A stretch of DNA of 64,000 nt from Emiliania huxleyi CCMP1516 (taxonomy: Eukaryota): contig NW_005201154.1 in the NCBI RefSeq assembly GCF_000372725.1, positions 180,843 to 244,842 on the forward strand. Reading direction: 5' to 3'. Position numbers and translations under genes: made by a program. Below are positions 9,441 through 59,452 of the stretch, one piece after another. A model generated the notes under the pieces. That model did no database searches and was not told where the DNA came from. It was given only the letters and a program-made list of their open reading frames with translations. How positions within the stretch are numbered: the first letter of the stretch is position 1; each line of letters opens with the position of its first letter.

Positions 9441-9651
9441 AGACGGCCGCGAGAGCGAGCACCGCGGTCACGGTACCGTGGAGGCCACAGACGTCGCCGG
9501 AGCGGCACTCCCGGGGCGCCACTCCCTCGCCCGGTCAGGGGGGGCCAACCACAGCCCGCCTCACCGTCCGTGGAGCTTCCGTGGTCCGCCGCTCCGGCTT
9601 CGATTTTCGACCCTCCCGAGGCTGCTAGAGCAGCCCCGCGGAGCCTCCCGG

Positions 9652-13470: not shown

Positions 13471-16400
13471 TCAATTTTCTCGACAGCGCCGCCCACCTGG
13501 CTCTGCGCCTTTGCGGATGTCTTTTGCGCCTGCTGCACGCCCCCGCCGAGCATGCCGAGGGCGGGCCCGATGGAGGCGGGCGAGTCGAGGGAGGAGGTGA
13601 AGAGGAGGAAACCTGTGTGCGCCGGCGAGGCTGTCAGGCAGGGGCTCTCCGGAGGCGGAGACTCTGTGCGGGAAAGAGGGGGAGTGTGGCGGGGGGCGGA
13701 AGGAGCAGGGGGAGTGTGGCGGGGCGGAGGGGGGGCGGGGGGGGGAGGGGGGACCGAGCAGGATGAAGGCTGCGAACATCACCAGCAGCACCAGCCCGGA
13801 GATGACGATCGCGATGATGTCCTGCGTGCGCAGGTTGAGCTCCTTCAGCTTCTGCGCCGCCTTCTTCTTCTCCTGCGAGCCGACGATCATCTGCTGCGCC
13901 TTGAACAGGCCCGCCGCGCCGAGGACGACATACATGCCCGGGCCCGCGAGCAGGCAGAGGAAGGCGATCGCCCTGGCCGGCTTGAGGATGCAGGAGAGGA
14001 CGAGCCTGAGGAGAGAGGGAGGGTGGCGGATCAGAGGCTCCGACTCGCCCGCGTGCGGACGCGCGAGGAGAGGAGGGCGGGCCAGGCGATGATGTTGAAG
14101 CAATACATCGCCGACACCACCCACGTCACGATGAGGAGCAGCTTGGCGGGGAGGCGGACCTGCGGGGAGATGTGGGGAGGTGTGGGGAGACGTGGGGAGA
14201 TATGAGGAGCAGCTTGGCGGGGGGGGGCGGACCTGTCTCGTCATCACCACCGCCATCAGAATGAGAATGAGACTAGGAGCGAGAATAGTGGGAAGCTTGG
14301 CGGGGCGGCGGACCACGGAGGTGACGACGGACATGCCGGGCACGGTGCCCCAGTAGTGCGAGACGAGCCACGCGAGGCAGACGGCGTCCTGCAAAAGTAC
14401 CGGTCCAAGTACCGCTCAAGCTTGCTTCACTACCTAGTTGCGACGCAGAGGCACGCGAGAGGCAGGGTGCGGCGGTCCTTGAGGTGGAAGAACTTGTAGA
14501 TGTCGTCCACCTAACCAGTGCTCCAGTGGACCGGCTTGTTGGCCACCGGCGGGGCGTCCGTCCAGACGGGTGACCTCGTGTCAGTGCAGAGCTGCGCACC
14601 CACTCGCGGTGCAATATAATATAATATAATATAATATAATATAATATAATATAATAGAGCTGCGCGCCCACTCGCGGTGCGTGCAGAGATGTGGGGAGAT
14701 GGGGGAGATATGGGGAGATGTCGCACCCACTCGCGGTGCGTGCAGACGCCCTGGTCGACGAACTCGTCCTGCGCGTGGGGCGTGTCGTGGACGTGTCGTG
14801 GACGTGTCGCGGGGCTAGCTCCCTCGTGCGACGGGCGCGGCTTCCTCGTGTGAGCACGAGAGGAGCAGCCCGAGCAACACGATGGGCGCGCCGCCGAGGG
14901 CGACGAAGCCGACGTGCACGCACGCGGAGATGGCGCCCTGCGTGCGGTCGAGGGCGGTTCTCATTGTTAGTGTGGTATGTCCGTAGTAGTGGTAGTAGTA
15001 AGTAGTAGCAGTAGTTGGTGCTTCCTGCTTGAGGTCGAAGGCCGTCTCGACGGGGTCGGAGAGGACGAAGTCGATGAGAAAGAGAGGCCTGTTCGCAGGA
15101 GCGCGAGCCTGAAGAGAGGCTCTTCGCATCGGACATGACTGAGAGCCGATCACAGAAGCGTCGCCTATCGGCGCGAGCAGGAATGTCCAGCATCCATATG
15201 CCAATGTGTGATGGAGCTCGGGAAGAAAAGAAAGAGGCGCAGCCTCTTCGAGGAGGGGGTTGACCGGGTCCCGGGATGAGGTTGCCCTCCTCGTCGGTGC
15301 GTAGCGACCCCTGCCCCCCCCTTCTTGGTGGCGGCCGAAGGCGTTTGGTTCTCGTCCAAACTTCGGCGAGGGGCCACCTCTTGGGGCCTTCCCCCCTTCA
15401 TNNNNNNNNNNNNNNNNNNNNNNNNNNNNNNNNNNNNNNNNNNNNNNNNNNNNNNNNNNNNNNNNNNNNNNNNNNNNNNNNNNNNNNNNNNNNNNNNNNN
15501 NNNNNNNNNNNNNNNNNNNNNNNNNNNNNNNNNNNNNNNNNNNNNNNNNNNNNNNNNNNNNNNNNNNNNNNNNNNNNNNNNNNNNNNNNNNNNNNNNNNN
15601 NNNNNNNNNNNNNNNNNNNNNNNNNNNNNNNNNNNNNNNNNNNNNNNNNNNNNNNNNNNNNNNNNNNNNNNNNNNNNNNNNNNNNNNNNNNNNNNNNNNN
15701 NNNNNNNNNNNNNNNNNNNNNNNNNNNNNNNNNNNNNNNNNNNNNNNNNNNNNNNNNNNNNNNNNNNNNNNNNNNNNNNNNNNNNNNNNNNNNNNNNNNN
15801 NNNNNNNNNNNNNNNNNNNNNNNNNNNNNNNNNNNNNNNNNNNNNNNNNNNNNNNNNNNNNNNNNNNNNNNNNNNNNNNNNNNNNNNNNNNNNNNNNNNN
15901 NNNNNNNNNNNNNNNNNNNNNNNNNNNNNNNNNNNNNNNNNNNNNNNNNNNNNNNNNNNNNNNNNNNNNNNNNNNNNNNNNNNNNNNNCGGACCTGTGGG
16001 GAGACGGGAGCACACGCCTCCCAGTGCAAGGCGCGGGGAGATGCGAGGAGATGTTGGGAGATGTGTGGCGGATGCGGGGAGATGTGGGGAGATGTGGGGA
16101 GATGTGGGGAGATGTGGGGAGATGTGGGGAGATGGGAGCACACGCCTGCCAGTGGAAGGAGCGGGCGGGACCGACGTACTCCTCCTTGGTGTAGTTGATC
16201 GCCTCCGCCTCGTGCTCGTACGTCATCGCGACGAAGGTGCCTGTTCACAGCTAGAGGTGTGAAGAGACGCTGTTCACAGCCTCGTGGTGACGTTCTTTCG
16301 ACGAAGTTGCCCAGTCGACGTCTCTCCTCCACCTCGGCCTCGCTCTCGCCGTAGACAGACTCGTACGGCGACGCGGCCTACAACCCCAAACCACAACCTC

Positions 16401-18446
16401 GGACGATCTCGGACGATCTCGCCTCGACCTCATTCCACGGCGCGCTAGACTCGCCTCGTCCGCAGCGCCCGCGGCGGTGGCGTTGGTGGTGTTTGCGAGC
16501 GCGCGGAAGGCGACGAAGTCTCCGACCCGGTCCAGCGCCACGAGCAAGTCGTGAGAGACGGCGGCGCCTGTTCGGCCACGCCGCGACTGGTGCATGGAGC
16601 GCGCAACGAGCAAGAGAAATCGTGAGAGACGGTGGCGCCGAGCATGCGCTGGAGCTCTTCCGGCTGCCCGAGGATCGCGTCCTCGGTGCAGAAGTCCGCC
16701 TCGTCGACGTCGATCATGATCTTGCCGAGGCTCGAGCTCATGACGCCTGTGCCGGGGAGATATGGGGAGATATGGGGAGATATGGCTCGAGCTCATGACG
16801 CCTGTGCGCCGGTGTGCGTGCGGGTGGCGTCGAGCGATCCGCTCTCAATGCGAGTGACGCTCTCGCCAGGGAGGGAGGGTGCTAGGGCGGGTGTCGGCTC
16901 GCCTACTCCGTGTCTTCAGCCGCTGAGCTCTCGACTGCATCGATGCTCTTGCCGAGGGCGGGAGGTAAGAGGGCGGGAGGCGAGGGCGGGACCGGAGGCA
17001 AGGGCGGGAGGTAAGGGCGGGAGGTAAGGGCGGGAGGCAAGGGCGGGAGGTAAGAGGGCGGGAGGCAAGGGCGGGAGGTAAGGGCGGGAGGCGAGGGCGG
17101 GAGGTAAGGGCGGGAGGCAAGGGCGGGAGGCAAGGGCGGGAGGTGAGGGCGGGAGGTAAGGGCGGGAGGTGAGGGCGGGAGGTGAGGGCGGGAGGCGAGG
17201 GCGGGAGGCGAGGGCGGGAGGTAAGGGCGGGAGGTAAGGGCGGGAGGCAAGGGCGGGAGGTGAGGGCGGGAGGTAAGGGCGGGAGGTAAGGGCGGGAGGT
17301 AAGGGCGGGAGGCAAGGGCGGGAGGTGAGGGCGGGAGGTAAGGGCGGGAGGTAAGGGCGGGAGGTAAGGGCGGGAGGCAAGGGCGGGAGGTGAGGGCGGG
17401 AGGTGAGGGCGGGAGGTGAGGGGAGGGCATCGGATGTTGCGCCCGCGGTGACAGCGCGGAGGAGGAAGGGCGGGATCCACATCATGATCTTGGACTTGAT
17501 GAGGTAGAGCTCGAGCTGGGGCTCGTCGCGCACCTGCGAGGCGCGGGGCAGAGGGACAGCGAGGATGAGGCACACAAGAGGCAGCAGCGGCGAGGCGAGG
17601 CGGAGAGGCCGCGGCACGGACCCGTGCGTTGAGAAGGGAGGGGCGGCGGGGGGGGGCGGCGGGGGGGAGAGCGGTGCTCGTGTGTTACAGGGCGAGTGTG
17701 TGAGAGAGAAGAGATGAGGCGCACAAAGAGAGCTGCCCTGCACGGAGTTTAGTATGGTGGGGCCCGGGCGAGTGTGGTGTGAGAGAAGAGGTGGGAGGGC
17801 GCACAAAGAGCTGCACGGAATAGTAGTCGTGGACAAAGTGCTCGAGGGCGGCCTTGATGTCGGGCTTGCCCTTGATGTCGTAGAGGGTGAGGTACGACGT
17901 GGACGCACCCTCCCCCTCCTTCTCCCTCTCCGCCGCCGCCGCCTCCTCCTCCTCCTCCTCCTTGTCCGCTTTGAGCGCCCGCCGGCCGAGCAAGTCGAGA
18001 GGGCTGAAGCCCTCGTCGACCTTGGGGAGGACGCGCTTGCCGTTGACGCAGACGTGAGGGTTGTGGTACTTCATCGACAGCTGGATCTGCGCCGAGTCGG
18101 CGTACACGGGCATGTTGGTCCGCAGGTATGGCGCGAGCGCCGTCAAGAGACCGAAGAGCGCGACGGCGATGGCCGTCTTGACGCCGGCCACGAGCGGGTT
18201 GGTGGGGAACATGATGCCAACGCTCGCCGCCGCGCTCGCAATCTTCTTCGACCCCGGCGTCACCGGGACGATCTTGGAGAAGATGTCAGCTGGCCCCGCC
18301 CGCGCCTTTGGCTTGCCAGCCTTGCCGTTGCCCTCATCGAGCACCTGCTGATACCTGACCTTTCCCTGCTCGATGGCTGCCCTTGTGGGGCGCTTGGTGG
18401 CAGGCGGTCGGCGGAGAGCAAGCCCGCCCGGCGTGTCGGTGTACAT
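13471..18446 (-). CDS. Large multi-exon hypothetical membrane protein (one or two genes; 3' end uncertain; spans a gap)
   Basis: Chain of coding-like segments (17.8-18.4k, 17.4-17.5k, 16.1-16.8k, 14.8-15.3k, 13.8-14.4k) with several hydrophobic helices, separated by repeat-filled introns. Confidence 0.5.
16955..17425. repeat. Intronic 12-bp minisatellite (GGGCGGGAGGYR) of about 39 units
   Basis: Directly visible tandem array. Confidence 0.95.
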
Positions 18447-18547: not shown

Positions 18548-19312
18548 ACGTGTGTGGTGGCGGCGTGCCGTCCTCCCATCCCTCCCTTGGGTTGTCTGTT
18601 TTCTTTCTTTCTTTCTTTGCCCGTCGGCTAATCCCGCCAGGGGTTGTGGGCTATATTTATTTATTTATTCAAAAACCACACTCCTCAAGGCCTCCCTCTC
18701 CTTCAGGCATTCGTGGCATCCTATGGGTCGTCCAGAGTATCGACCTCTGGCTTGTCAGCCGCCCCACCGAGGGCACCATGAAGTACAGCGATCGCCATCT
18801 CGCTGGCCTCTTCGCAGGCCCCCCCGACCGCGTCGAACTCATCGGCGCGGGCTCTCTCGGCTACGGGACCGGCCCCAGCTTCGGCTGAGGGCTAACAAGC
18901 TGCCGAGCCCAAATCACTGTGAGAGTCGTGATTTCTTGTTGGTCTTTAAAAATCTCTCACTCCTCTCCTTAAAATCCCTGTGTGTGTGTGGTGGCGGCGT
19001 GCCGTCCTCCCATCCCTCCCTTGCGTTGTCTGTTTTTGCCCGGCCGCGCGCAGCGCCAATCGGGCGTCCTTTGCTCCTCCGCGAGCTGCCCGGCCGTGAA
19101 GAAAACAAATTCGCACAGGACTCCTTGCGCTCCTCAAAAACCACGGTCTGCCCGTCGGGTTGCTGCCCTAATCCCGCCAGGGGTTGTCTGCCCTATTTAT
19201 TTATTTAAAAACCACACTCCTCTCCTTAAAATCCCTGTGTGTGTGGTGGCGGCGTGCCGTCCTCCCATCCCTCCCTTGCTGGTCTGTTTTGTTTCTTTCT
19301 TTCTTTGCTTTT
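18548..19312 (+). repeat. Cluster of three copies of a SINE-like repeat (GTGGTGGCGGCGTGCCGTCCTCCCATCCCTCCC...(TTTC)n)
   Basis: Copies at ~18550, ~18960 and ~19210. Others at 24113-24190, 29046-29113 and 47154-47269 (minus strand). Confidence 0.8.
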
Positions 19313-19717: not shown

Positions 19718-21783
19718 TCAGGTCTCGCCCCAACGCGCTCGGAGCGCCTCCGCGGCGCGAAGCAGCCTCTCAGCGATCGGCTCCGCCTCCTCCGCGCTCG
19801 CGAGGCGGCCGTACGAGAGGCGGAGGTGGCCGGGCCGCCCAAAGGCCGAGCCAGGCAGCGTGAGCAGCTCGTGCTCCGCCGCGAGCCGCCGCACCGCCTC
19901 CTCCTCCGCCTCGCAGTCGGCAAGGCGCGAGGCGTGCAGCAGGCCGCTGCGCTCCTCCTCCGCCGCCTCGCCGCCCTCGCCTCCCTCGCCCAGCACCCGG
20001 GCGCCGCGCGAGCTGCAGCCGGGCAGCCTCACAAAGTAGTAGAATGCGCCGGCGGGCTGCAAGGCGCCCCCCCCGCCGCGCAGCGGCGCCAGCGCCTCCC
20101 ACAACATCGCCCGCGCCGGCTCGAGTGTCGCAACCTGAGATATGGGGAGATATGGGGAGACATGGGGAGATATGGCTCGAGCGTCGCAACCTCTCCGTGG
20201 GGTGGCCCAAGAGGTGAGGGTGTCGCGGCGAGGTTCGAGGGAGCTCGCGCGCCGCCGCACTCGCCTGCTGGCGAACCCGATCTCCGCACATCTCCCTCAG
20301 ACCTCTCCTCATCTCCCCACTCGCCTGCTCGCGCACCCACGCCTCGCCGAGCCCTTCCAGCGCCTACTCTCGCGGCCAATCTCGCGTGAATCTCGCGTGA
20401 GCTCCACCCCCCCCGCCTCGCCTCGCCCTTCCCAGCGCCGCGAGGGCGAGTCGCTGCGAGGCGCGGCACGCGTGCGTCGGCATCGTGTCCTGCACCTGCC
20501 CACACGTCCACCGAGATAGGGGGAGACAGGGGGAGAGATGGGGAGAGATGGTGTCCTGCACCTGCCCACACATCCACCACCCATTGCTGCACCAGCCCCC
20601 GCGCGTGCGCGTGGGCGGCGCGTCCCACCGCCTTGAGCATCGCGTCGTGCAATCTCGGGCGATCTCGGGCGATCTCGCGTGATCTCGCGCCTTGAGCATC
20701 GCGTCGTGCAGCTGGTGCGGGTAGGACAGGTGGCCGACCCTCCACGCCGCCAGGCCGTACGACTTTGAGAAGGTGCGCAGGCACAGGAGCAGCTCGCCTC
20801 CGCCCGCCTCGCACAGCTCTGCCGCCGAGGCGTGCTCCGCCGCGCCGTAGGTGAAGTGCTCGTACGCCTCGAGGAGTCATCTCACAGCGTCTCTTCACAC
20901 CTCCAGCTGTGAACAGGCGCGCCGTAGGCGAAGTGCTTGGTACGCCGCGAGGATCATATCACTCGTCGAGGTCAACCAAAGCGGGGGGGAGTGCCGTCGG
21001 CGAAGGTGCGCGCCGCGCCTCGTCCGAGATCAGCCCATATCTCCCCATATCTCCCCACATCTCCCCATATCTCGCGCCTCGTCCGAGATCAGCCACGCGC
21101 CCGCCTGCGGGAACGCTCACGGAACGGCTCATCGTGGAGCCGCACGCCCCGACGGAGGAAGGTACGCGCCGGACCTGCGCGCAGGCCTCGCCCAGCTCTC
21201 GCACGAGCTCAGCCGGGCAGACGGCGCCGGTCGGGTTGCTCGGGGAGACCAGCACCACCGCCCTCAGCCGGCCGCCGGGGCGCGAGGCGGAGGCGCGCAC
21301 GGCGCCGGGCGTCGGCAGGCCTACCCGTAGTGGAGAGCAGAGGCTGCACTGTTGATGGCATTGATGTAGGTCGTGCGTCGGCTCGCCTCGCTCGTCGCAG
21401 TCGGCGAAGACAGGCACAAGGCCGAGGAGCTGAAGCGCGACCAGGTGCGAAAAGTAGTAGGGCCGCCAGAGAAGCACCTCGTCGCCGACGTCACAGGTGG
21501 ACAGCAGCGCGTGCACGAACGCCTGGTTGGCGCCGGGTGTCACCATGACGTGCTCGCGCCCGTGCTCCTCGCGCAGCGCTGCCAGCAGCGCCGGCTCGCC
21601 GCGGATGTCGCCATACCCGCCGTCGCCGCGCAGCGCCGCCTCGACGAGGCGCTCGGGCGGCGACCAGTGCGCCGTCCCAGGCGCGAGGTTGGCGATGCCG
21701 GGACGGAGGTGCGTGGCGATGATGCGCTCGACGATCGCCTCCGAGGCGTTGGCCGCGCGCATGGACGGCCGGAGGCGACGCAT
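19718..21783 (-). CDS. PLP-dependent aminotransferase class I/II, multi-exon
   Basis: VMVTPGANQAF, PYYFSH, VSPSNPTGAV, LISDEAYEHF, TFSKSYGLAAWRVG (PLP lysine), GAFYYFV and LPGSAFG..HLRLSYG. Confidence 0.92.
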
Positions 21784-21907: not shown

Positions 21908-24112
21908 GGTGGCAGTCCGGGTTCTGTGAAGAGGGTCGCTGGTCGAATGCGAGCCAGTTCGCTCGCGACGCCGACGCCGACGCCGCCGCCGGAACGACCG
22001 CGGCGGCCGGTCGAGCGGCCGCCCCGGCCAGCGGCCGTATCGAGCCTGCCCGTCGCGAAGGTGCGGACCTCACGCGCCCCACCGGCCGCCCGCGCCGCCG
22101 CGCCCACGTCGCTCTCTCGAAGCCCAGCGCCACGCCGCTACGACTCCCATCGCGACGACTCCCGTGCTCGCTCGTGGCGCAGGCGATCGACTCCTGACAC
22201 CCATCGAGCGGATGGGCGCGTTCCCGCCGCGACCCGGTACTCTCGAACGACTTTTGAGGGCAAAAGGTGCCGCCCGAGCCCATTCCCGCCGCCCGCCGCC
22301 CGAGATCAGCTGCCACCGGCCAGCGCGCGCGCGGAGACCTGCCGCGAGCGCCTCCGTGGCCCTAGCTGGGGTGATTAGCAAGCGCCTCGGCACTTTAGAT
22401 TCGCCCCTCGGGCTTTTCCGCGCGCGTGATCAGTCTCGCGTTCTCTCCTTTTTCAGGCGCCTGTTTTCGGCCTCTGAAGAGCAACCGTCGAGGCGTCGAT
22501 GCTCGCCTCCACGACCGCGCCAGACCTCCGCGATTGGGGCGCCTTGTCGACGGGATCAATTGTTATTCCGAACACATTTTTCTGGCATTTAACTCGCACG
22601 TCGGCGACTCTTAGTCGCTTCTCCGTGCTAGGAGGCCTCTGTTTTGTGTCCGCGAGGACTAGATCGAAACTAACATTTCGGCACATTTCAGTTAAATGCC
22701 AGAAAAATGCGCGTTCACTCACAATTCATGTGTATATGAACGGTGCCGACGGGTTTGGCGAGCATCGAAGCCGTCCAGGCGCAGCAACGCGACGGATTCG
22801 GAGGCCGAGGGCTCCGAAAGAGCCTCCCGAGCGAGGCCGGCGCGGTCACGGTGCCGTGGCGGCCACCGACGTCGCCGGAGCGGCACTCCCGGGGCGCCAC
22901 TCCCTCACCCGGTCAGGGGGGGCCAACCACAGCCCGCCTCACCGTCCGTGGAGCTTCCGTGGTCCGCCGCTTCGGCTTCGATTTTCGACCCTCCCGAGGC
23001 TGCTAGAGCAGCCCCGCGGAGCCTCCCGGATGCACCAGCACACCGTCGTCCAGAACGCCTCTGCACGCGCTGCCCAGTGACTGGGCGGGTCGGCCCCGAC
23101 TAGGGGCGGGCCCAGCCGCGCGGAGAAGACCATCCCACTCGCGGTTCGTCGCACCGTCCGCTCCGGTTTTCGTCTCGAGCGGGTCGTGAGACGGCCGCGA
23201 GAGCGAGCACCGCGGTCACGGTACCGTGGAGGCCACAGACGTCGCCGGAGCGGCACTCCCGGGGCGCCACTCCCTCGCCCGGTCAGGGGGGGCCAACCAC
23301 AGCCCGCCTCACCGTCCGTGGAGCTTCCGTGGTCCGCCGCTCCGGCTTCGATTTTCGACCCTCCCGAGGCTGCTAGAGCAGCCCCGCGGAGCCTCCCGGA
23401 TGCATCGGCACACCGTCGTCCAGAACGCCGGCGCACGCGCTGCCCAGTGACTGGGCGGGTCGGCCCCGACTAGGGGCGGGCCCAGCCGCGCGGAGAAGGC
23501 CAGCGAGCTCGAAACACGTCGCCGCGGCCGGCCGTTTCGCAAGCCTGAGCGGGTCGCCAGACACCCGCGAGAGCCAGCAGCTAGAGCGCCGTCGTAGCCG
23601 CAGATCGAGTCGAGGAGCTTGATGTCCACGGTAGCAGTTGTGGAGAGCGGTGGCACGGTGCGTGTAGACGCGTCGATTGAGGGCTCCCTTTCGAAACGCG
23701 ACGGGTACGGCATGACAACTGCCAGTACAGTTTTACGCCGGCCAGCGTGAGAGCACAACAGGGAGCCGGCGACCCGTACGCTTTGCGCGTGGCGACTGGT
23801 GGCTGTCTGGAGCTCGTGTGAGCTGGGCCGACGCGTGGCCGAGCCGAGAGGACCAGCGAGCGACCACGTTGGCGATGAAGCTTGGCGGCCGGCGCCTCGT
23901 CGCCAGACGTCACAGCGGCGTGGACGTAGGAGTGTGCGGCGACGGTTACCGGCAAATCCGGCCCAGTGTGGCCGGCAGCTGCCTAGCGCTGGCCTGTGGC
24001 CGGCGCCGCGGTGGCGGATAAGGCGTCTCGCCGCCGTGGCGGCGGTCGGCAGGTGCGAGCGTGATGCCATCTTGCGAGACGACACCCGTCTCGCAAAACC
24101 CGGACTGCCACC
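21908..24112. mobile_element. Intact 2.2 kb non-autonomous Kolobok-like DNA transposon, copy 2
   Basis: TTAA on both sides (21904-21907, 24113-24116). 16-bp TIR GGTGGCAGTCCGGGTT / AACCCGGACTGCCACC. Internal ~290-bp direct repeat (~22841-23127 / ~23211-23497). No transposase ORF. Confidence 0.9.
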
Positions 24113-24239: not shown

Positions 24240-25705
24240 ATGTCCACCCGCCGCGCCGCCGCTCGCGCACCCTCGCCTCCGCCGCCGCCGCCGCCCCCTC
24301 GCCAGTCGCGCCGCCGCCCGCCCGGCTCCTCGACCTCCCCAGGGAGCTCCTCGAGCGCGCCCTCTCCCGCTTCGACAGCCCCGCCGACATCGCTCGCGCC
24401 GCGGCCGTCTCGCTGCTCTTCCACGCCTCGCTAGCGGAGCAGGGCATCCGCTTGTGGGCGCAAGAGCGCGGCTTCGAGCTGCCGCCGCAGCCGGAGGGCG
24501 AGAGCTGCGCCGTGCGGTGGCTGTGCTTCGCCGCGCTCCTGCGCAAGGCCAACCCGCCGGCGAGGGTGTCCGCAGGCGAACGGCACAGCGTCTTCATCGA
24601 CGGCAAGGGGCAGCTCTCGTCGTGCGGGTCAGCGGCAACGGAGGGGGAGGAGGAGGAGGAGGAGGACGAGGAGGAATTACCAGGCCTTCTCGGCCACGGC
24701 GAGGGCGTGACGCGGCTCAACACGCCGACCCGCCTCCCGTCAACGCTGGGTGACGAGCGCGCCGTGAGCGTGTCGGCTGGAGATGGCCACAGCCTCGCCC
24801 TCACCGCCGACGGCGCCGTCTGGAGTTGGGGCGGTGGAGTTTTTGGCAAGTTGGGCCACGGCGACCACGAGACGCAGCTGCTGCCGAAGAGGATCGAGGC
24901 CTTGGCGGGGCGGCGCGTCATCGCTGTGTCGGCTGGAGGCATGCACAGCCTCGCCGTCACCGCCGACGGCAGTGTCTGGAGCTGGGGCCGCGGAGTCTAC
25001 GGCCGGCTGGGCCACGGCGACTATCAGAACACGCTGCTGCCCGAGAAGATCGAGGCCTTGGCTGGCCATCAAGTTGTCGCTGTCTCGGCTGGACTTCACC
25101 ACAGCATCGCCCTTACCATCGACGGCGGCGTCTGGAGCTGGGGCTCTGGAGGCGAAGGCCAGCTTGGCCACGGCGAGTCGCGGAATTGTCAGCTGCTGCC
25201 GAAGAAGGTCGAGGCCTTCGCTGAGCGGCGCGTCGTCGCTGTCTCGGCTGGAGACTTCCACAGCCTCGCCATCACCGCCGACGGCTCTGCTTGGAGCTGG
25301 GGCCATGGATACTCTGGCCAGCTGGGCCACGGCCACTGGCAGCAGCAGCTACTGCCAAAGAAGGTTGAGGCGTTCGCTGGGCGGCGCCTCGTCGCTGTGT
25401 CGGCGGGAGGCGAACACAGCCTCGCCCTCACCGCGGACAGCAGCGTCTGGAGCTGGGGCAGTGGATTGTCGGGCAAGTCGGGCCACGGTGACGAGCAGAA
25501 CCAGCTGCTGCCCAAGAAGATCGAGGCCTTGGCTGGCCAGCGCGTCGTCGCTGTGTTGGCTGGACTCGACCACAGCCTCGCCATCACCGCCGACGACGCT
25601 GTTCATGCTTGGGGCAAGGGCGAGAGCGGCTGCCTTGGCCACGGAGAGGACCTGTCGACCCAGCTGCTGCCCAAGAAGGTCGAGGCGTGGTCGCCGGCGC
25701 CGTGA
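24240..25705 (+). CDS. F-box-like + RCC1-repeat protein, intronless; ATG is out of frame with the main ORF (frameshift near 24270)
   Basis: About 6-7 RCC1 repeats (VSAG..HSLALTADG.VWSWG.G..G.LGHGD). Upstream in frame is LLDLPRELLERALSRFD. Confidence 0.85.
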
Positions 25706-26203: not shown

Positions 26204-27610
26204 ATGGGCCTCCGAGGGAGCGATCGCGTCACCAAGGTGTGTCGTCTCCTCGGCGTTGCGGTGGTGACGCTGACGATGCTTCACGCCGCCAGCAAGCCGG
26301 AGCCGGTTCGCCGCCCGGCGCCGACCATGCTGGAGCACCGGCGCCGCGTGAGCGGCGCCACGTACGCGGCGCGGATACCCCGCGTCGTGCACCAGACGTG
26401 GATGTCCCGCCAGCTGCCTCGCGGCCTCGCCGACTGCGTGCAGACGTGGGTCAAGTCCGGTTGGGAGTGGCGGCTGCACACGGACGCTGACAACTTGGAG
26501 CTCGTCAACGGGTCCTACCCCGCGCTGTTGTCGCTGTACATGTCGCTCCCGCCCGTCGCGCAGGCCGACATCGCGCGCCTCCTCTACATGCACAAGTGGG
26601 GAGGCGCGCGCCGCGGGAACCCGACGCCCGCCGTGCTCGGGACGCCGCGAGCAACACTTCTGTGCAAGGCTTGGTCTAGGCGTGTACGCCGACCTGGACG
26701 TGTGCCGCCTCGAGCCGCTGGACCCGCTGCTCGAGGCGGCGGCCAGCGGCGCAGTGCCATTCGGCGACGGAGGCGGCGACGGAGGCGGAGGCGGCGGCGG
26801 CGCAGGAGGAGGAGGAGGAGGCGGCGGCGGCGGCGGTGGAGCACGAGGCGGCGGGGGCGGGCGGAGCTGCGTGCTCCTTGGGCAAGAGCCGCTCGAGCAC
26901 GCGGTGCTCGTCGAGGGGGTGGGCGAGGACACGTCCAGGACATGGACGCGTCGATGACATGTCCGAGACATGTCTTCAGGTGCTCGTCGAGGGGGTGGCG
27001 AGGCAGGTCTGCAACGCCCTCCTCGTCTCGGAGGCGGGGCACCCCTTCTGGCTCGTCGCGCTCGACGAGGTCGCGGCCCGCTTCCTGCGCGGCGGGGGCG
27101 ACGACCCGGTCGACCTCCACTTGCCCCATGCTCTTCTCGGACCCTTCTCGGACCCTTCCTGGAGCCTTCCTGCAGGTCTACCTCACCGGCCCACGCATGC
27201 TCGAGGCTGCCGTTGTCCGGTGGCACGCCGCTGCGGCTAGGGCGGCCTCCTCTCGCCTCCGCCGCCCTCGGCGCGGAGCCTTCTCGGAGCCTTCCTCGAA
27301 CCTTCCTGTAGGCGGCCTCCTCTCGCCTCCGCCGCCTGGACCCTCGGCCGCCGCGCGAGGACGACGAGGCCCGCCAGCCGCCTTCCCTGTGCATGAGCCG
27401 TCTCGACACCTTGCCCCTGTAGGCTCGTTCGCCCCGCGAGGGCTCCTGCGCGGACTCCGCCGCCGCCGCAGGCTCGCGGCGGCGTGCCCTCTACTTGCGC
27501 AGAGCAAGGGCAAGGGCTGTCCACGAGCCTTCTCCGTACCTTGCTGCAGGCTGCGCCGCGGCAGATGGTGTCGCCGCAGTGGGAAGTCTCCTCTTCCTCC
27601 TCCGCTCTAA
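26204..27610 (+). CDS. Glycosyltransferase family 32 (DXD, OCH1-like), multi-exon; 3' end uncertain
   Basis: N-terminal TM segment, IPRVVHQTW, ADIARLLYMHKWGG|VYADLD, NALLVSEAGHPFW and YLTGPRML. Confidence 0.85.
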   Translation: MGLRGSDRVTKVCRLLGVAVVTLTMLHAASKPEPVRRPAPTMLEHRRRVSGATYAARIPRVVHQTWMSRQLPRGLADCVQTWVKSGWEWRLHTDADNLELVNGSYPALLSLYMSLPPVAQADIARLLYMHKWGGARRGNPTPAVLGTPRATLLCKAWSRRVRRPGRVPPRAAGPAARGGGQRRSAIRRRRRRRRRRRRRRRRRRRRRRRRRWSTRRRGRAELRAPWARAARARGARRGGGRGHVQDMDASMTCPRHVFRCSSRGWRGRSATPSSSRRRGTPSGSSRSTRSRPASCAAGATTRSTSTCPMLFSDPSRTLPGAFLQVYLTGPRMLEAAVVRWHAAAARAASSRLRRPRRGAFSEPSSNLPVGGLLSPPPPGPSAAARGRRGPPAAFPVHEPSRHLAPVGSFAPRGLLRGLRRRRRLAAACPLLAQSKGKGCPRAFSVPCCRLRRGRWCRRSGKSPLPPPL

Positions 27611-29261
27611 CACCCGCTCTCCGCTCTAACTCGAGCCTCGCCACTCTCGGCCAGCTGGCCGCCGCGAGCAAGGAGCGAACCGATCCTCGTTCCTCCCGCC
27701 GCCGTTTCCCGCCGCCGCCGCCGCCACGGCCGCCGCGGCCGCCGCCGCCACTCTCCCGATTGCAGGGCTGGGTGCGCGGGCTGCAAGCGAGCGACTCGCC
27801 CTTCGCCTTGGCCGCGACGCCGCCGGAGGACGGGGCAAACCCCGGGGGTTTTTCTTGGGGGGGGGCGGTCCTCCCCCCGGGGGGGGGAAGGAACCCCCCC
27901 CCCAAAAAAAAACACCCCCCCAAAGCGGCAGGGACACAGGGAGAAATACCTTTAGGTCGGGGGGGCCCACCCCCTCTTTTCCGGGGGGGGAGCGGGAAAC
28001 CTTTGGCCCCCCCCCCCCCCCTTTTCAGGCGCCTTCTTCCCCTCCTACGACCCGATGCAGCAAGGCTCGCTCCGCGACAAGTGCTCGGCCCCGGAGACGC
28101 AGCCCCTCCCTCTGCGCTTCGGCTGGCTCGCGCCACACCTCCACGCCGCAGCTGCCGCCGTCTGCTCGCGCCTCGCGATGCGAAACTTCGCCGCCGCCGC
28201 GCCGCCGCCGCCGCCGGACGCGCAGGCGGCGGGAGCGGCGAGAGCGGCGCAGCGCGGGGCACGGCTGAGGGCCGGATCCGCTACCCTGAGTGTAGGCGGG
28301 TGTTGTGAGCGTGTTGGAGCGCTCCTTTGCGGACCACCGTTGGGCGCACACTTGGCTTGGCGAGCCGTGCGCGCGGGTTAGCGACGGGCCGCGCCAGGTG
28401 GCGGGCTCAGTGGGCCTCGGGTGCGCACGTAGGCGCGGAGCTGGTCAAGGTCGATCTGCGCGACACCATCGGCGTCGACGACAACGGCCGGTTTCGCCTT
28501 CCCGGCATAAACCCGAGGTAGCAGCGGGCGTGTGTGGAGAGGATCCGGGACTGTGTGCAGCTGGTTTGGTATCTTTATATTGTGTCGACGACACGACGTA
28601 AAAATACGGTAATATAGCGCATGTTGTGAGCTCTTCGCCCGTGTGTGCCGTGTGTGGGCGCTGGTGTGGGAAGACCCGGTCTCCTGCTACCCTCGGTCAT
28701 GTTCAGTGGCTCCCCCCGCGGCGCAGGATCCCAACCGCCACGAAGAGTGCGGCGACAGCGCCTACACTTGGTGGACAGGAAGCTCGGATAATGTAGGTGT
28801 AAAGCAGCGTGATGGGCGCAATGAAACCGGCGACAGCAGTGTACATGGGCGGCATTTCGCCTACCTTGATGATGGCTCGTCTCGCGACTGTGCCGCGAGA
28901 AGAGAGGTGGGGTGAGTGTGTGGGCGGGGATGGCGAGGGATGTGTGGTACGGCGGCCGAGAAGGCGCAGAGGGTAGCAGCAGCACGGCGCCCGCTCGCCT
29001 GTGAGCTGTGTCGTTGAAAAAGAATTGGAGAAAAAATAATTTTTGTAAAATCCGTGTGTGGTGGCGGCATACCGTCCTCCCATCCCTCCCCTGCGTTCTC
29101 TGTTTTCTTTCTTTGAGAATTTTGCCACCGGGGATCCCACCGGGCACGGGGCTGAGCCTGCCGTGCTCGATCTGGGAGCCACTCGGCGCCAGTTCGAGCG
29201 GCGGTCGGCTCGGCCACTGCGGGGCGACGCATGATAGAGCATGCTTGCTGGGCGCCGCATC

Positions 29262-31608: not shown

Positions 31609-34600
31609 TCACTGCTGCCGTTGGCGCGGCGCGCACTGCACGATATCGTCGACGCGCAGGATCATCTCGGCCGCCTCGGAGGAGGAGAGGAGCACCTGCT
31701 CCTTGACCTGCGGCGGGAGACGTGCCGAGATTGAGCCGCGATTGAGCCGAGATTGAGCCGAGATGAGCTGTGCCCCCGCCCAGGCCTGCAGCGACTCGCA
31801 GATGCCGAGGGCAACCATGTCGCCCAGCCCGCCGCGGTCCATCTCGAGGCCCCACGTGTGGCGCCCCTCGTGGTGCTTCGCCTGCTCCTCACACAGGTCC
31901 AGCCGTGAAGAGACGCCGGAAGGTGCGCTGCACCCCCCCCCCCCCCCTTCTCGGTGGCTCGCCTTGAGGCCGGCGCACAGCTCAGTCGAGTCGTAGCCCG
32001 CGTTGTCCGCGATGTGCATCGGCATCGTGCGCAGCGCCTTTGCGTACGCCTCCATCGCAACGACGTGCTTCGAGGCGACCCGCTTCGACTCCTCCTCCAC
32101 CGCCTGCGCCATCAGCATCTCTGGCGCGCCTCCGCCCGGCAGCACGGCCGTATTCTTGACCTGTTCACACCCTGCAGGTGTGAGCAGCGTCTCTTCACAG
32201 CGGCAGCACGGCCGTGTTCTTGACCGTCTGCGAGAGGACGCAGAGCGCGTCGTGCAGCGAGCGGTGCGCCTCGTCCACCACCAGATCAATTAATATTTAA
32301 TTAGTAGTTAATTATAGTTAATTAACAGTGCGCCTCGTCCACCACGTGCGTGTTGGCGCCGCGCAGCACGATCGACGAAGCCTGTGAGTTTGGGCAGCCA
32401 GAGAAGCGGACCAGCTTGTCCTCCCCAATCATCACTTCCTCGATGAGCTCGCACGAACCTACGCGCTGAATACGCCGACCTCAGGGCGGGAAGACAATAT
32501 TGTGCAGTGTGTTCAGAGCACCGCGTGAGTACAACGGAGAGGGAGACAGTGAATACAGCGGAGTACGGCCGAATACGGCTGAGTGCGTGTCCTCTCGAGC
32601 GCTGGTTGGGAGACAAGAGCCCGTCTTCCGCTTCTGGGCGCACGAGCCGAGCTTGACGCGCTCGGGCGTGTCGAAGGTCGAGACGATGTCGCCGTCGAGC
32701 ACGAGCGCGAGCCGCTCGGTGCCGTCAAAGTCCGAGTGCTCGATCGACCTACAGGAAGGTTCCAGGAAAGGTCTAGGAAAGGTCCTCGCGGTGCCGTCAA
32801 AGTCCGAGTGCTCGATCGACATGACTCCCGCGTCGGCGAAGCGCTGCTCGGGCAGGTTGTAGATGAGCTGCCTGTGGGGGGAGATATGGGGAGATATGGA
32901 GGTTGTAGATGAGCTGCCTGCTCTCGTCGGGGGAAGGAGCGAGTGGCCACTCTGAAGGCAGAAGGCGCCGCCAGAAGCGAGGAGCGGGCTGTAGCCGCCG
33001 GTGAAGAGACGTCTCGCCTCTCGGCTACACCCCCCGCCCTCTCTGTGCTACAGCTGCACCGGTTGATGAAGACGTTGCACCCGTGGGCGAGTATCTTGTC
33101 CACCTGGGCGAGAGAGTGGGGAGAGGTGGGGAGAGAGTGGGGAGAGAGGGGGCGAGGACCCTGTCCACACCTTGTCGAGCATCTTCTTCTTCTCGGCCGC
33201 CTCGATCTCCGCGACCTTGGAGACGGAGTCCACCTTGACCTTGGAGCCGTAGATCTTGACTTTGTCCGTGTCCATCGGCGAGTTGGCAATCATCACCTTG
33301 CAGTCGCGCATCCGCTTGGGGCAGCCGACGCCGATCTTCTTGTCGAGCAGGAAGCCTATAATTAATTACTATAATTAACTACTAATTAAATATTAATTGA
33401 TCTTCTTGTCGAGCAGGAAGCCGTCGGGGTCGAGGTACGAGTCCTTGAGCGTGCCTGGGAGAGGGGGAGGGAGGGGGAGGGAGGGGGAGATGGGAAGCCG
33501 TCGGGGTCGAGGGACGGGAGTCCTTGAGCGTGCCTGCAGCCGAGACATGGCCGAGGTGCGGCCGAGGTGCGGCCGAGGTGCGGCCGAGACATGGCCGAGG
33601 TGCGGCCGAGGTGCGGCCGAGGTGCGGCCGAGGTGCGGCCGAGACATGGCCGAGGTGCGGCCGAGGTGCGGCCGAGGTGCGGCCGAGGTGCGGCCGAGGT
33701 GCAGCCGAGGTGCAGCCGAGATGCGGCCAAGAGCATGGCCGAGAGACATGGCCGAGAGACATGGCCGAGAAGGTGCGGGCCGAGGGGCGGGTCGTGGTGG
33801 AGCGTGCCTCCTATCCGCTTGATGATTTGGATCTGGTCGAGGTTGGTCGAGCCTCGCAGCTTCATCACCGCGTCGACGGCGATGGCGGCGAAGTGCTCCT
33901 TGTCCTGAGAGAGCACCTTGGACGAGAGAGTTGTCATCGCGATGTTGAGGAGGTCTTGCCGGAAGGCAGCCTGCAGCACACGCAGAGACGGAGAGTCACG
34001 AGACCTCGCCCCTCCCCCCCCCCCTCCCCTTGCCGCAAGGATCCCGCGCGGCACGCCTCGTCGTCCGAGTGGTCGATCGTATCTCCCCATATCTCCCCGT
34101 ATCTCCCCGTATCTCCCCATATCTCCCCATATCTCCCGCCTCGTCGTCCGAGTGGTCGATCGCCGCGGCGCGCAGCGCCTTGAGGGCAGCGTCCCTCGCG
34201 AGCCGGTAGCCTCCGATGACGACCTGTCGAGGGACGTGCCGAGGGACACGTGTCGTGGAGATGTCGTGGAGATGTCGTGGAGATGTCGTGGAGATGTCGT
34301 GGAGATGTCGTGGAGATGTCGTGGAGATGTCGTGGAGATGTCGTGGCGCCGCTCGACGAGGCGGGCGGGGGGCGGGGGCGGGGGGAGGGGGGAGGGGGGA
34401 AGGGGGGGGGGGGGGGGCTGCCTGCGGGTGCATCTTCTTCTCGATGAGCTCGGCCGCCTGGCGGAGCAGCTCCCCCGCCAGCACGCAGACTGAGGTGGTC
34501 CCGTCGCCGACCTCGTCGTCCTGCACCTTTGAGATGTCGATGAGCACCTAGAGACATGTCCCGGACATGTCATGGGCGTGTCCTGGACATCCTGCACCTT

Positions 34601-35241
34601 TGAGATGTCGATGAGCACCTTTGCGGCGGGGTTGTCGATGAGCACCGACTTGAGGATCGTCGCGCCGTCGTTTGTGACCGAGACCGACCCGCCGCGCGAG
34701 TGCGACTGCAGGATCTTGTCCATCCCTTTCGGACCGAGCGACGTCTTGACAAGGTCGGCGATGGCGAGCGCCCCGACGATGGAGGACTGCGAGGGGGAGA
34801 TATGGGGGGAGATTTGGAGGACGGCGAGACGAGGCGTGCGCAGGAGGCGTGCGAGGCGAGGCGAGGGCAGAGATGGCCCACACGCGTGCGCAGCGAGGCG
34901 AGAACAGAGGCGTGGCGGCGGGGGCAGGAGGCAGGAGACGTAGGCAGGAGATGTGCAGGCGGCGGGAGAAGGCAGAGAGGGGTGGGCAGACGGCGGGGGT
35001 CGCCGGGACGGGCGGGAGGAGCGCGGGTCGTCGGGAGAGGACGTGAGGCCAGGCCGGCCCGCCCACGCGAGCCACCTCGACGTGAGAGCCTTGGCGGGCG
35101 GCAAGGCGGCAGGCGGCGGGCGAGTGGCGTGAGAGTGGGAGGAGTAGAGGCGACTGTGCGCACCATGCGGGCTTGCTCGCCCTTGGCCTCCTGCGAGCCC
35201 TCTCCGAAGAGGTTCACCGGTCCAAGCGAAGGGCCCATCAT
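31609..35241 (-). CDS. CCT2: T-complex protein 1 subunit beta (CCT chaperonin), more than 12 introns
   Basis: [70 protein letters not shown] and [19 protein letters not shown]. Confidence 0.97.
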
Positions 35242-35544: not shown

Positions 35545-35740
35545 TGATCTCGGATAATCTCGGGTGATCTCGGGTGTTTTCGGGTAATCTAGGGTAATCT
35601 AGGGTGATATCGGGTGATCACGGGTAATATTGGTTAATTATCTCGGGTTATCTCGGGTAACGCCGGGTCATCTCGGGTCATCTCGGGTAATATTGGATCT
35701 TGCGTAGTCGGTACACACACACTCACATACACACACACAA

Positions 35741-35826
<86 letters not shown>

Positions 35827-35902
35827 GCGCGCGCACACACACACATTATTAGTAATCTCGGGTAATCTCGGGTAATCTCGGGTGATCAGAAGTAATCTCG
35901 GT
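35545..35902. repeat. 10-bp tandem repeat (ATCTCGGGTR) flanking a (CA)n microsatellite
   Basis: Directly visible. Confidence 0.9.
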
Positions 35903-39637: not shown

Positions 39638-40085
39638 CTACGAGAGCATGCATCTCACGCTACTACGAGGCGCGTCCGCTTTGAGCGTAACCACCAGCGC
39701 TGCGCTCGACGGCAGCGAGGCGATGTTCCTCGTCTCCCCGGGGTCAGTCTCGAGGTCGAAGAGGTCGACAAACGTGGTGCTAGCCTTGAACCGCTTCGGG
39801 ACAGCCCATCGGATGAATCGGTATCGACTAGTCCGGTAGCTGTAACCCCAAGCGAGCGGGACAGGCAGCTGAACTCCAATCATGGGGCGTCCGACGCTCT
39901 CAGTCCGTTTGAACGCACTTATCGAGCCATCGTGTGTGCCCCGAGCGACCGGGCCCTCCATCAGCGGCACCAGCGACCGCCCCTGCACTCGCGATGGGAT
40001 CGGCAGGTCGCTCATCTCGCAGAGCGTCGGGAAGATGTCGAGCAGCTCGACCGGCGCGTCGACGCGTTTCACGGCGCTCCCGCTC
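39638..40085 (-). pseudogene. Sulfatase (iduronate-2-sulfatase/choline sulfatase-like) C-terminal fragment
   Basis: PVELLDIFPTLCEM...QGRSLVPLM, GYSYRTSRYRFIRW and LFDLETDPGETRNIA. No N-terminal CxPxR region seen. Confidence 0.75.
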
Positions 40086-41129
40086 CAGCGTGAGAGGACG
40101 ACGCCTTCGGTTGCTGTCTACGTGTGTGTCTCTGTGTGTATGGATCGACGGTGTGAATAACAGTCAGGCTCCCGGATTGAACAACCACCAACGCGGTATG
40201 GGGTGGACGCGAGACAGGAGATGACGTCACGCTCACAACCACCTCTGCGGCATATATCCTTTCCATTCGGCCCTCCTCCTCCTTCTCTGTCGCTCGCTCT
40301 TGTGTTGTTCGGCGGCGGCGGCGGTGTGTGTGTGTGTGTGGGGGGGCTTCTCTCTTGTTCCCGAAAGAAGTGCGCCCGCCGCTAGCAGGTACAGGTGCGG
40401 GCTGTGACTCGCGATTGGCCACACTGCGCTCGCATCTGTGTCAAAAACTTCGTCGGGCGGAATGAAAGCGCGGAGCCTTCCCTTAGTAGGATGCGTGGCG
40501 CTGTGCTCGCCCACATCGAGGCTCCCAGCTGTCAACAGAGCCTCTCAAACAGGACCTGCTCAAACAGGGCTGGCAGCTATACAGCCGCGCGCCCCGACGC
40601 GCTCCGCATCCAACGCAAGCCCTCCCGACTCCCGACTCCCGACTCCCGACTCCCGCCACTCTCAACGGACAACGCACAGTGCACACCGCCTCGCTGCGCG
40701 TACTCTCAGGTCGAACGATCGACTGCGGCATCTACGTCCTTCCTGCGAAAGTAACTGTGCAGACAAGCAAGCCCGTCAAGGGCAAGCCATGGTCAGAGAG
40801 AGATATTGCAATAGGAGCCAGGTCAGTCAGAGAATTGCACCTGGAATGGATGTGGCGCCTGCTGCGAGTGCTCCGCCTCTCCCCCTCCATCCGCCGCCGG
40901 CTCGGGGCATGTGCAAGCAAGGCGCCCAGCACGCCGAATTCTTTCTACCGAAACATGGTCGTGGGGCATGGGCCCTATTGCGAGGAGGGAGAGGGAGGTG
41001 CGGTGGGGGGGGAGGGAGGGGGGGGGGAGGGAGTGTGAGGGGTATGGGGGCGAGGGCATGGAGGGGGAGAGGAAGAGCAAGGGCGAGAGGGGGCCCAGGG
41101 AACGGGTCGATGGCATACTAGGGGGGGCA

Positions 41130-47269: not shown

Positions 47270-47389
47270 TATTATTCTTTCCTCGACGGCGGCTTCTCGG
47301 CACGATTTCTTTCTGCACGCGCACAGATCCTCGGACGGCAGTGAATGCGCTGGACGGATTAGCCGCGATTAGCGTGTCACGGAGGGCTC

Positions 47390-47541
47390 AATGGCTGACG
47401 TAAGCCGACGACCTCGAGAGATGGGGAGAGATGGGGAGAGATGGGGAGAGGTGGGGAGATACATCTCAATGGCTGGCGTAGGCCGACGACCTCGAGAAGC
47501 TTCTCTCCGGGGGCGGAGACCTCGTCCAGCCGCTGCTGGCT

Positions 47542-47580
<39 letters not shown>

Positions 47581-48708
47581 AAGGGCGACGGCGGAGCGGC
47601 GGAGGCTGTGTGCCGTCGCGACGCGGCGGTTGCGGCGGCGGCGGCGCTCTACCCGGCGTACGTGGCCGACCGCGACGCAACCAAGGGGTTGTTTTTTTTG
47701 GCCCCCCCCCCCCCCCCCCCCCCGCCCCGCCCTGCCCCCCGCGCGCGCCTGGTGTCTGGCCGTGACGTGCGAGCTGCCCACCGGCCCTGCCCACCGGCGG
47801 TTCGCCCTTCAGACGCTGCTCTCGGAGCTGCTCTAACTGATGAGCAATTCATCGGTGGGCCGGTTGCAGGGCCCTCCTCACCCGCCTGGCTCCACATTAC
47901 GGACGGGCGGCGGAGACCTGAGCCTTCTTGGAACCCCCCCGCGAAGGCCTTTTTCCCCGACGCGAACGGCTGCCTCCGCCTCTCGGCCGGCCACGTGGAG
48001 GGGTACTCTGCCGCGGACGCGGTGCAGCACACGCCCGTGACCACGCTCGGCGGGCTCTAGCCGAGAGTCTAGCCGAGAGTCTAGCCGAGAGTTTGGCCGA
48101 GGTTGTAGCCGAGGTTTGGACGGGGTGTAGCCGAGGTGTAGCCGAGAGACAGCCTTGCACCCAGCACACTCTGCGGGCGGCGGCCTCGGGAGTGTGTCGT
48201 GGAGGTGTCGTGGAGGTGTCGTGGAGGTGTCGTGGACGCGTCCCCCGCAGGCGGGCTGGTGGACAAGCACCTTGAGGCCAAGCTCAGCGGCGCGGGCGAG
48301 GCGGTTGCCGACCTGGTCAAGGGCGAGGGCGGAGACTTCGACTGCCCGCAGCGGCTGGTGGACCTCTGCGCCGCAGACACGGCCGTGGCGGCGACGCCGT
48401 GCTGCGTGTGCTACTCGACCGACACGGTCGGAGGCAACAGCGGCTCGCCCGTGCTCGACGCCAACGGCGACTTCGTCGCCATCAACTTTGACCGCCAGCG
48501 GCTCGGGCTGATGAACGAGTTCAAGTGGAGCGCGGAGTACTCCCGCTCGATCGGTGCGCCGAGCGGCGGCACTCTCCCCGCCGCCCGTCGGACCCGCCGC
48601 ACGACATGTCCGCGACATGCCCTCGCAGGCACCGACGTGCGGTACATCCTGCTGCTCGTCGGCCAGTACGACGGCGCGCAGTGGCTTGTCGACGAGATGG
48701 TCGGCTGA
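47390..48708 (+). pseudogene. Peptidase S46 (DPP7/DPP11-like) C-terminal part, intron-containing, apparently 5'-truncated
   Basis: FPDANGCLRLSAGHVEGY, STDTVGGNSGSPVLDANGDFVAINFD and SRSIG|TDVRYIL...GAQWLVDEM*. Confidence 0.8.
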
Positions 48709-52996: not shown

Positions 52997-53128
<132 letters not shown>

Positions 53129-54235: not shown

Positions 54236-58909
<4,674 letters not shown>

Positions 58910-59249: not shown

Positions 59250-59452
59250 AAACCTCGACACCGACTCGAGACACCTCGACCGCCCATGTGCCAACTCGAC
59301 TCCAACTCGACCAACTCGACACCCCTCGACACCCCTCGACACCATCTAGGCGGAAACCATGCTCGTGTCCGTGTCAAGGTGCCAAACTCGACACCTCGAC
59401 ACACCTCGACACCCCTCGACACCCCTCGACACCGCTCGAACCACTCGACACC
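59250..59452. repeat. Cluster of CTCGACAC-type 10-bp repeats
   Basis: Directly visible. Confidence 0.8.

Follow-up and report, generated by a model that had tools for sequence, protein, structure and literature searches.

The window analysed here is a 64,000-nucleotide stretch of the genome of the haptophyte Emiliania huxleyi CCMP1516 (contig NW_005201154.1, positions 180,843 to 244,842), and at 31609–35241 on its minus strand lies CCT2, the gene for the chaperonin subunit TCP-1 beta, with 15 exons and 531 codons. Many introns of this gene, and others in the window, contain a copy of the adjoining exon set apart from it by a short filler; we refer to such copies as echoes. A query with the exons matched, at 100%, the transcript-derived 531-residue CCT2 protein P0003 and the E. 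huxleyi CCMP1516 models P0004 and P0005. P0003 is covered by 15 segments of the window, and the overlaps between these segments fall exactly at the echoes. The 14 intervening introns all begin with GT or GC (eight with GC) and end with AG, as the original prediction had proposed for introns of this kind, and their removal yields a coding sequence (CDS) that translates exactly to P0003 and ends in a stop codon. Both NCBI models of the gene go wrong at the echo introns. A satellite at 35547 lies just upstream of CCT2. The introns, in the order of transcription, are as follows.

34787–35163, minus strand: intron 1, GT–AG, no echo; same position in the orthologous loci L014 and L019 (see below).
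34519–34620, minus strand: intron 2 (34548–34618 or 34527–34597), a whole new intron; 31-bp exact duplication and 40-nt GACATGTCC-type filler.
34224–34421, minus strand: intron 3, GC–AG, no echo; position common to the read-through protein P0022.
33971–34162, minus strand: intron 4 (33971–34139), donor side lengthened by a 26-bp duplication and a 57-nt GAGATATGGG filler.
33416–33807, minus strand: intron 5 (33455–33807), in which about 40 bp of the following exon recur as a decayed copy and a further acceptor can be used.
33333–33422, minus strand: intron 6 (33356–33421); 24-bp duplication and 42-nt AT-rich filler.
33104–33170, minus strand: intron 7; decayed echo and CTCTCCCCAC-type filler, scoring above 262 of 262 control windows.
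32854–33059, minus strand: intron 8 (32872–33059), acceptor side lengthened by a 21-bp duplication and a 25-nt ATCTCCCCAT filler.
32717–32820, minus strand: intron 9 (32749–32820), a whole new intron; 32-bp duplication and 40-nt filler ending in AG.
32459–32647, minus strand: intron 10, GC–AG; short echo by eye only, not significant.
32264–32345, minus strand: intron 11 (32270–32333); 18-bp duplication and 46-nt AT-rich filler.
32137–32225, minus strand: intron 12 (32161–32224); 25-bp duplication (1 mismatch) and a 39-nt module of the filler family F2, with its 5′ half inverted.
31882–31962, minus strand: intron 13, GC–AG, with a decayed F2-like motif; echo not significant.
31708–31785, minus strand: intron 14, GC–AG, with an 11-bp satellite and no echo.

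In nine of the 14 introns (2, 4, 5, 6, 7, 8, 9, 11 and 12) the match to the mRNA next to the splice junction outscores each of the 262 control windows. Introns 1, 3, 10, 13 and 14 were not significant in this test, and the echoes seen by eye in introns 10 and 13 were dropped for that reason. Introns 2, 6, 9, 11 and 12 consist entirely of exon copy and filler, with one mismatch in 130 duplicated bases, and in introns 4, 5 and 8 the echo extends a pre-existing intron; intron 7 is probably an older event of the whole-intron kind. It had been proposed that the same process both creates introns and lengthens old ones, and CCT2 contains both outcomes. Six CCT2 pairs had been listed, and all are real: four are whole new introns (2, 6, 9 and 11) and two (34054 and 32854) lengthen an existing one. 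That list was nevertheless incomplete, because introns 5, 7 and 12 also carry echoes. The 71-nt intron proposed at 34548–34618 is correct, in that the spliced CDS translates to P0003.

The units are removed exactly from the transcript. Among the 15 of 762 joints listed for two DNA runs (X1, X5) and two RNA runs (X12, X15) of independent sequencing, the joint expected from the splicing of intron 9 (32716>32789) was found in both RNA runs and in neither DNA run. A second gene with echoes behaves in the same way.

19721–21783, minus strand: class I/II aminotransferase gene with six GY–AG introns (GY, GT or GC); echoes at 20118, 20368 (decayed), 20485, 20629, 20841 and 21014.

Its six-intron model encodes 419 residues collinear with two orthologues (P0140 and P0141), and the spacing in RNA contig X15-17 fits the model (177 and 98 nt, allowing for match overruns of 2 and 1 bases into the echo); pairs 20629 and 21014 lengthen existing introns. 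Thus, in CCT2 and the aminotransferase gene, removal of one copy plus filler restores the protein, as predicted. Exact removal is possible because the first copy donates the GT or GC, and the end of the filler or the second copy donates the AG; in intron 6, for example, the GC donor comes out of the exon, and the AG is made of a filler A and a target G.

Could the echoes have been made by assembly? The sequence is a draft in which the window carries three runs of N. However, X1 contig 6 and X5 contig 28 are colinear with the window through intron 12, and the latter also through intron 11; protein P0138, from another sample, reads through the echo at 21014; and the copies show graded mismatches. 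An artefact is thereby refuted at the loci spanned by independent contigs and is barely credible elsewhere. A transcript-derived protein from another sample, P0126, itself reads an intronic copy: it is the product of splicing at the acceptor of the intron 5 echo and terminates in a frameshift. The intron 5 copy (33455–33536) is intact in that sample and decayed in the window, and this mis-splicing is a visible cost of the echo.

Across the window, the 12 pairs listed in the original prediction are all exact, maximal direct repeats (18–32 bp, with fillers of 25–71 nt). We scanned the whole window for exact repeats of at least 15 bp at spacings of 30–200, and 25 of 328 raw repeats passed a satellite filter, which also cost us two of the 12 listed pairs (34054 and 32264). 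Of these 25, three are coding repeats (24.9–25.7 kb) and three more (49.6 and 62.6 kb) do not represent gene echoes. The same scan found no repeats in two order-5 Markov simulations of the window and none at control spacings of 1000–1170 and 3000–3170, which confirms that the 12 pairs are real; at 300–470 it found nine, comprising satellite, coding-repeat and larger duplications. In a complementary search, 25 of 47 short-period arrays had mutually matching flanks above the 99% null, and 22 remain after removal of three that were satellite self-matches by eye. The curated set contains 26 echo events, with a median repeat of 24 bp (18–43) and a median filler of 41 nt (25–133); the coding repeats at 24.8–25.7 kb and the duplications at 36461, 49643 and 62625 were omitted. 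Strand is known independently for the CCT2 and aminotransferase events and was assigned elsewhere through splice signals, so that an overall count of splice options (20/24) is partly circular and is not relied on. A crude map of codon periodicity gave too weak a signal to tell genic from intergenic parts of the window. The events outside the exons and introns of CCT2 and the six echoes of the aminotransferase gene listed above include the following, together with one of those six that calls for separate description.

14131–16807, minus strand (from splice signals): cluster with a triple copy at 14131/14140 and echoes at 14588, 14667, 15995, 16259 (F2), 16549 and 16729.
20841–20954, plus strand: F2 module antisense to its gene, the aminotransferase, with the same 3′ end, GTGAACAGG, as other F2 copies and a decayed duplication of about 36 bp across an acceptor.
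26903–26998, plus strand: 20-bp duplication and 56-nt GACATGTCC-type filler.
47387–47497, strand not set: 33-bp duplication (2 mismatches) and 45-nt GAGAGATGGG filler, adjoining a peptidase S46 match.
53126–53537, strand not set: echoes at 53126, 53311 (decayed) and 53421.
55831–58766, plus strand: echoes at 55831 (F2), 57945 (F2) and 58669, and a 66-nt insertion at about 56437–56526.

The last of these insertions (24-bp duplication plus 42-nt GGAAGGGTCCC filler) has no exact splice option and may be an in-frame coding insertion.

In the two independently stranded genes, 11 of 12 events can be spliced out exactly between a GY and an AG of the gene strand, against a fraction of 0.39 when insertion at random sites of the CCT2 CDS is simulated (P=0.0002). 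In 6 of 11 such events the splice site lies 0–3 bases from the start of the repeat (0.175 expected, P=0.006), a bias predicted alike by targeting of the insertions and by selection for good acceptors. We therefore considered insertion aimed at splice sites or transcribed exons, by splicing-coupled nicking or by copying of excised intron 3′ ends, in place of random insertion followed by filtering. Consistent with such aim are this bias, the triple copies that begin at one acceptor (14131–14314 and introns 5 and 8), the lack of echoes at several satellites that lie outside recognised genes, and the tabulated E. huxleyi introners, of which 82% lie in genes, against 40% coding (PMC9860276, supplementary listing). 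Selection gives the same bias, however, low-complexity intron flanks hide echoes, events 14588/14667 and 56437 cannot be spliced out exactly, and one F2 copy is antisense; targeting thus seems to us rather improbable.

The donors also bear on a peculiarity of this alga. GC donors occur in 13 of the 20 introns of CCT2 and the aminotransferase gene, and GC makes up 0.66 and 0.85, respectively, of the exonic GGY in these genes; a GC-donor share of 56–65% has been reported for E. huxleyi (PMC4028052). Donors copied from exonic G|GY would inherit the GC:GT ratio of the exon, and this would explain the GC-donor majority.

Are these introns gained, or were they lost elsewhere? An orthologue search fetched 80 loci, seven of them with split matches. 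L014, a genomic orthologue on a 17.9-kb contig of another haptophyte, contains the whole of CCT2 at 83% and has, over the full gene, one intron against 14 in the window, and this one coincides in position with intron 1. The sole intron of L019 (residues 1–407) lies there too, and L020 and L021 have none over residues 235–531 and 177–531, respectively. In a quick tree these four loci form one clade inside the group that contains P0003, and they count as one test. Intron 1 is evidently old, given its place in L014 and L019. The position of intron 2 is uninterrupted in L014, L019 and P0022, which breaks after Q124, as intron 3 does. Read-through CCT2 proteins of the Tisochrysis cluster have no introns at 293, 310 and 344 (introns 8–10). 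The introns with matches elsewhere are therefore the echo-less 1 and 3, and 12 or 13 of the CCT2 positions look specific to the Emiliania line; the orthologues support lineage-specific gain. Turnover occurs in the sister family too, where Tisochrysis-cluster proteins (P0135–P0137) have introns of their own after residues 340 and 370; another locus, L022, has its own after K237.

The insertions had also been called recent. The near-identical copies in the five whole introns agree with this, on the basis of copy identity and not of demonstrated polymorphism. X5 contig 29 breaks off at 33332 and has 88 unlisted letters; X1 contig 8 and X5 contig 30 begin at 34590 and have 70 and 99, respectively. 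Ends of this kind are compatible with empty alleles of introns 6 and 2, yet the 70 letters of X1 equal 30 + 40 if the intron is present; both cases are ambiguous and are not counted as evidence. Empty-allele joints for the two introns would fall among the 747 of 762 joints outside the listing, and some repeats were skipped by the search.

What are the fillers? By similarity, 22 of the 26 fall into four groups: GAGATATGGG-type (11), the F2 module of about 40 nt (5), AT-rich (3) and GACATGTCC-type (3). The AT-rich fillers of introns 6 and 11 are identical over 36 bases and lie in opposite orientations. F2 terminates in GTGAACAG|G in each of its five copies; the 5′ ends vary, and one copy has its 5′ half inverted. 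In the independent runs, 58–81 contigs have loose ends at the F2 positions 20884/20917 with mixed flanks, 27 contigs leave the intron 9 filler at 32748, again with mixed flanks, and several contigs hold two fillers 21–36 letters apart, which is the size of the duplications in the window. The fillers are thus shared, dispersed families with defined ends, inserted in either orientation, a feature that the original prediction had missed. The filler motifs had no match in the viral contigs or the prokaryote genomes searched.

These properties bear on a two-step origin, in which a plain tandem duplication of an exon piece bearing AG|GY is followed by satellite expansion between the copies. The route is a demonstrated one (PMC3443670, PMC4974935), and an AG|GY site lies inside 10 of the 23 events for which a splice option exists. 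Against it, a duplication of 18–32 nt is by itself too short to splice and would mostly shift the frame, the acceptors of introns 6, 9 and 12 require filler bases, and 36 identical bases recur in opposite orientation in two introns. We regard this origin as very unlikely.

A stronger competitor is DNA repair or replication, in which a flap, gap or staggered break of about 25 nt is filled in and the 3′ end jumps, through microhomology, to abundant repeat DNA before it is religated; this yields a duplication with a spacer and involves neither an RNA step nor an element-encoded enzyme. At 30 filler ends, 25 bases of filler periodicity run into the target (11.2 ± 3.6 expected, P=0.0008), in stretches of 1–4 bases and at both ends, and many of the fillers are unrelated, plain AATAT included. 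The F2, F3 and AT fillers fold below their shuffles (z −0.9 to −5.2). Accounts of flap and repair template-switching fit both the long duplications and the two-sided microhomology (PMC5730883, PMC13142317 and PMC12633238). On the other hand, the fillers are not random tracts but consist almost wholly of repeat and have a sharp end in common, and the templates are not mainly nearby: fillers of one family are not locally clustered (12 pairs within 2.5 kb, 10.2 expected, P=0.28), so that local templating is not supported. We hold repair to be only slightly less probable than the enzymatic step that we put first (below). A tie between filler orientation and splice-site position was also considered and dropped, in that 20485 and 15995 break the rule and selection explains the rest.

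We consider it very probable that the echo introns are insertions with long target duplications, filtered by splicing. The original prediction had proposed a staggered break or insertion with a long target duplication filled with repeat DNA, and the exact splicing and the absence from orthologues support it, together with the shared fillers, the microhomology at the junctions and the high share of events that can be spliced out. For the enzymatic step we put first, with not quite even confidence, target-primed reverse transcription acting in trans, which is ranked slightly ahead of repair template-switching because the fillers contain almost nothing but repeat and end sharply at common points. 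The target would be opened by nicks about 24 nt apart; a free 3′ end would pair over 1–4 bases with a short template of a dispersed family and copy it; and fill-in would leave target–filler–target. The unit is then spliced exactly, as in CCT2 and the aminotransferase gene. Selection would retain those insertions that form a new intron, straddle an existing splice site or stay in frame, and the intronic copy would afterwards decay, if the gradient of mismatches is read as age.

Several points weigh against this reading. First, the four orthologous loci amount to one test on a quick tree, and the young age is argued from copy identity. Second, the evidence that selection did not make the fixed F2 end is one antisense copy, and the microhomology lies at both filler ends, not at the 3′ end alone, with a null that ignores how the boundaries were drawn. 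Third, none of the 26 fillers has a poly(A) tail or an RNA polymerase III head, and the duplications (median 24, 18–43) exceed the typical 7–18 bp of long interspersed nuclear elements (LINEs). Fourth, a Pfam search of 142 open reading frames (ORFs) in the window (43 + 99) found no reverse transcriptase or transposase, a weak negative from one window only. Finally, 19 of 20 downstream exons start with GY, but this is weak evidence and was rejected as specific, since four of four introns inspected at other loci do so as well.

How do these introns compare with known systems? Introners are dispersed families that create introns and "co-opt 5′ carry 3′" splice sites (Gozashti 2022, PMC9860276; Gozashti 2025, PMC12130899). 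The main texts of these two papers do not name Emiliania, and the E. huxleyi families are already tabulated, which the original prediction had missed: the 2022 supplement lists 653 elements of CCMP1516 in five families (mean length 37–70 nt), with the target duplication given as "?" in four and none in one (PMC9860276), and the 2025 tables list three, two unclassified and one "LTR unknown" (long terminal repeat), with automated duplications of 2–4 bp or NA and a note of "10bp terminal direct repeats" for one (PMC12130899). The echo introns share with introners a similar sequence in introns of unrelated genes (F2 at 5 loci, the GAGATATGGG group at 11, the GACATGTCC group at 3) and a precisely spliced new intron missing from relatives. 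They differ in that the similarity does not span the whole intron, 18–32 nt of each new intron being a locus-specific exon copy. Compared with the tabulated families, by table description only, an 18–35-bp exon copy makes up about a third to half of the intron, and what moves is a non-coding repeat that lacks long inverted ends. Introners of the DNA-transposon type (miniature inverted-repeat transposable elements, MITEs) have fixed duplications of 2–9 bp and terminal inverted repeats, whereas the duplications here vary from 18 to 43 bp, the terminal repeats of F2 are short and direct, and its only inversions are short and internal.

The fixed 3′ and variable 5′ ends of F2 recall short interspersed nuclear elements (SINEs) and other non-LTR elements, although the periodic fillers are not polarised. 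Target-primed reverse transcription with RTE-type tails shares the variable duplication, the 3′ microhomology and the repeat-like ends, but no head, promoter, ORF or poly(A) is seen in the window fillers; LINE duplications are mostly 7–18 bp (PMC6007223). SINE and non-LTR duplications are as a rule 20 bp or less, against a median of 24 bp here. Staggered-break gains in Daphnia pulex likewise place an insertion between direct repeats of the adjacent exon, and repeated rounds lengthen young introns, but there the repeats are 4–12 bp and most insert sources unknown (PMC4202315), whereas here the repeats are 18–35 bp and the fillers come from recurrent families; a direct repeat of the adjacent exon, the signature of this route, stands above background in the window. 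In tandem duplication of AG|GT (PMC3443670; potato RdRp, PMC4974935) the duplicated exon also supplies donor, acceptor or both, but here a foreign filler of 25–133 nt is present in 26 of 26 events, often gives the AG, and GC donors are used. Flap-derived "alternative duplications" have the same copy–spacer–copy layout; they are described from yeast and human cells that are nuclease-deficient or under stress, their spacers derive from hairpins or neighbouring DNA, and the accounts consulted draw no link to intron gain (PMC13142317, PMC12633238). The echo introns therefore work like introners or staggered-break gains and do not fit MITE-type introners, SINEs or plain tandem duplications; on our best reading they are mini-introners with 18–35-bp target duplications and repeat modules of 25–70 nt, filtered by splicing.

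Our literature search, which did not extend to the 2013 genome paper and some supplements, found no account of exon-copy introns in Emiliania, of 18–35-bp exon copies, of satellite-like modules, of older introns lengthened by the same event or of such density in one conserved gene. The 2013 paper reportedly describes 10–11-bp intronic repeats. We further speculate, as an unlikely extension, that G|GY sites receive copies, made in trans, of AG-ending intron tails, with target duplications of about 25 bp, a self-feeding process that would have built most E. huxleyi introns, the 10–11-bp intronic satellites and the GC-donor majority, and would still be segregating in blooms.

The source of a new intron can usually not be read; here source, footprint and a series of ages stand side by side, and as many as 12 or 13 of the gains fall in a single conserved gene. 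If the process is genome-wide, it would supply a mechanism for an unclassified introner group and one cause for the GC–AG majority, the repeat-rich introns and the intron retention of E. huxleyi, would account for the failure of NCBI gene models at echo sites, and would make the rate of intron gain and selection on it measurable in a species with many sequenced strains.

Elsewhere in the window, young echoes were not detected in the genes recognised by Pfam at 1956–3729, 11322–11993, 39641–40117, 51070–51798, 60961–62103 and 62829–63605 (TPT, NSRP1, sulfatase C-terminal, GLTP, nucleotide-sugar transferase and SelR). The stretch 24770–25690 contains five to six coding repeats of 156/159 bp, in high copy in all four runs, which we take to be RCC1-like; the one frame scanned had no Pfam match. 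A multi-copy element at 29020–29114 and 18550–19020 has a sharp end at 29114 (69–73 contigs with loose ends) and a 40-bp stretch in common with 18550. A 370-bp tandem duplication at 22841–23579 is a high-copy repeat whose CCGGAGCGCCACTC motif recurs at 7895–7924 and 9497–9526. Satellites of 10 bp lie outside recognised genes, without flanking duplications, at 35547–35901, 59315–59456 and 62145–62265. A low-complexity gene has a long CAG (polyglutamine-coding) tract at 56040–56275, and the matches to peptidase S46, a mainly bacterial family, extend over 47400–48700, split by introns and adjoining the echo there.

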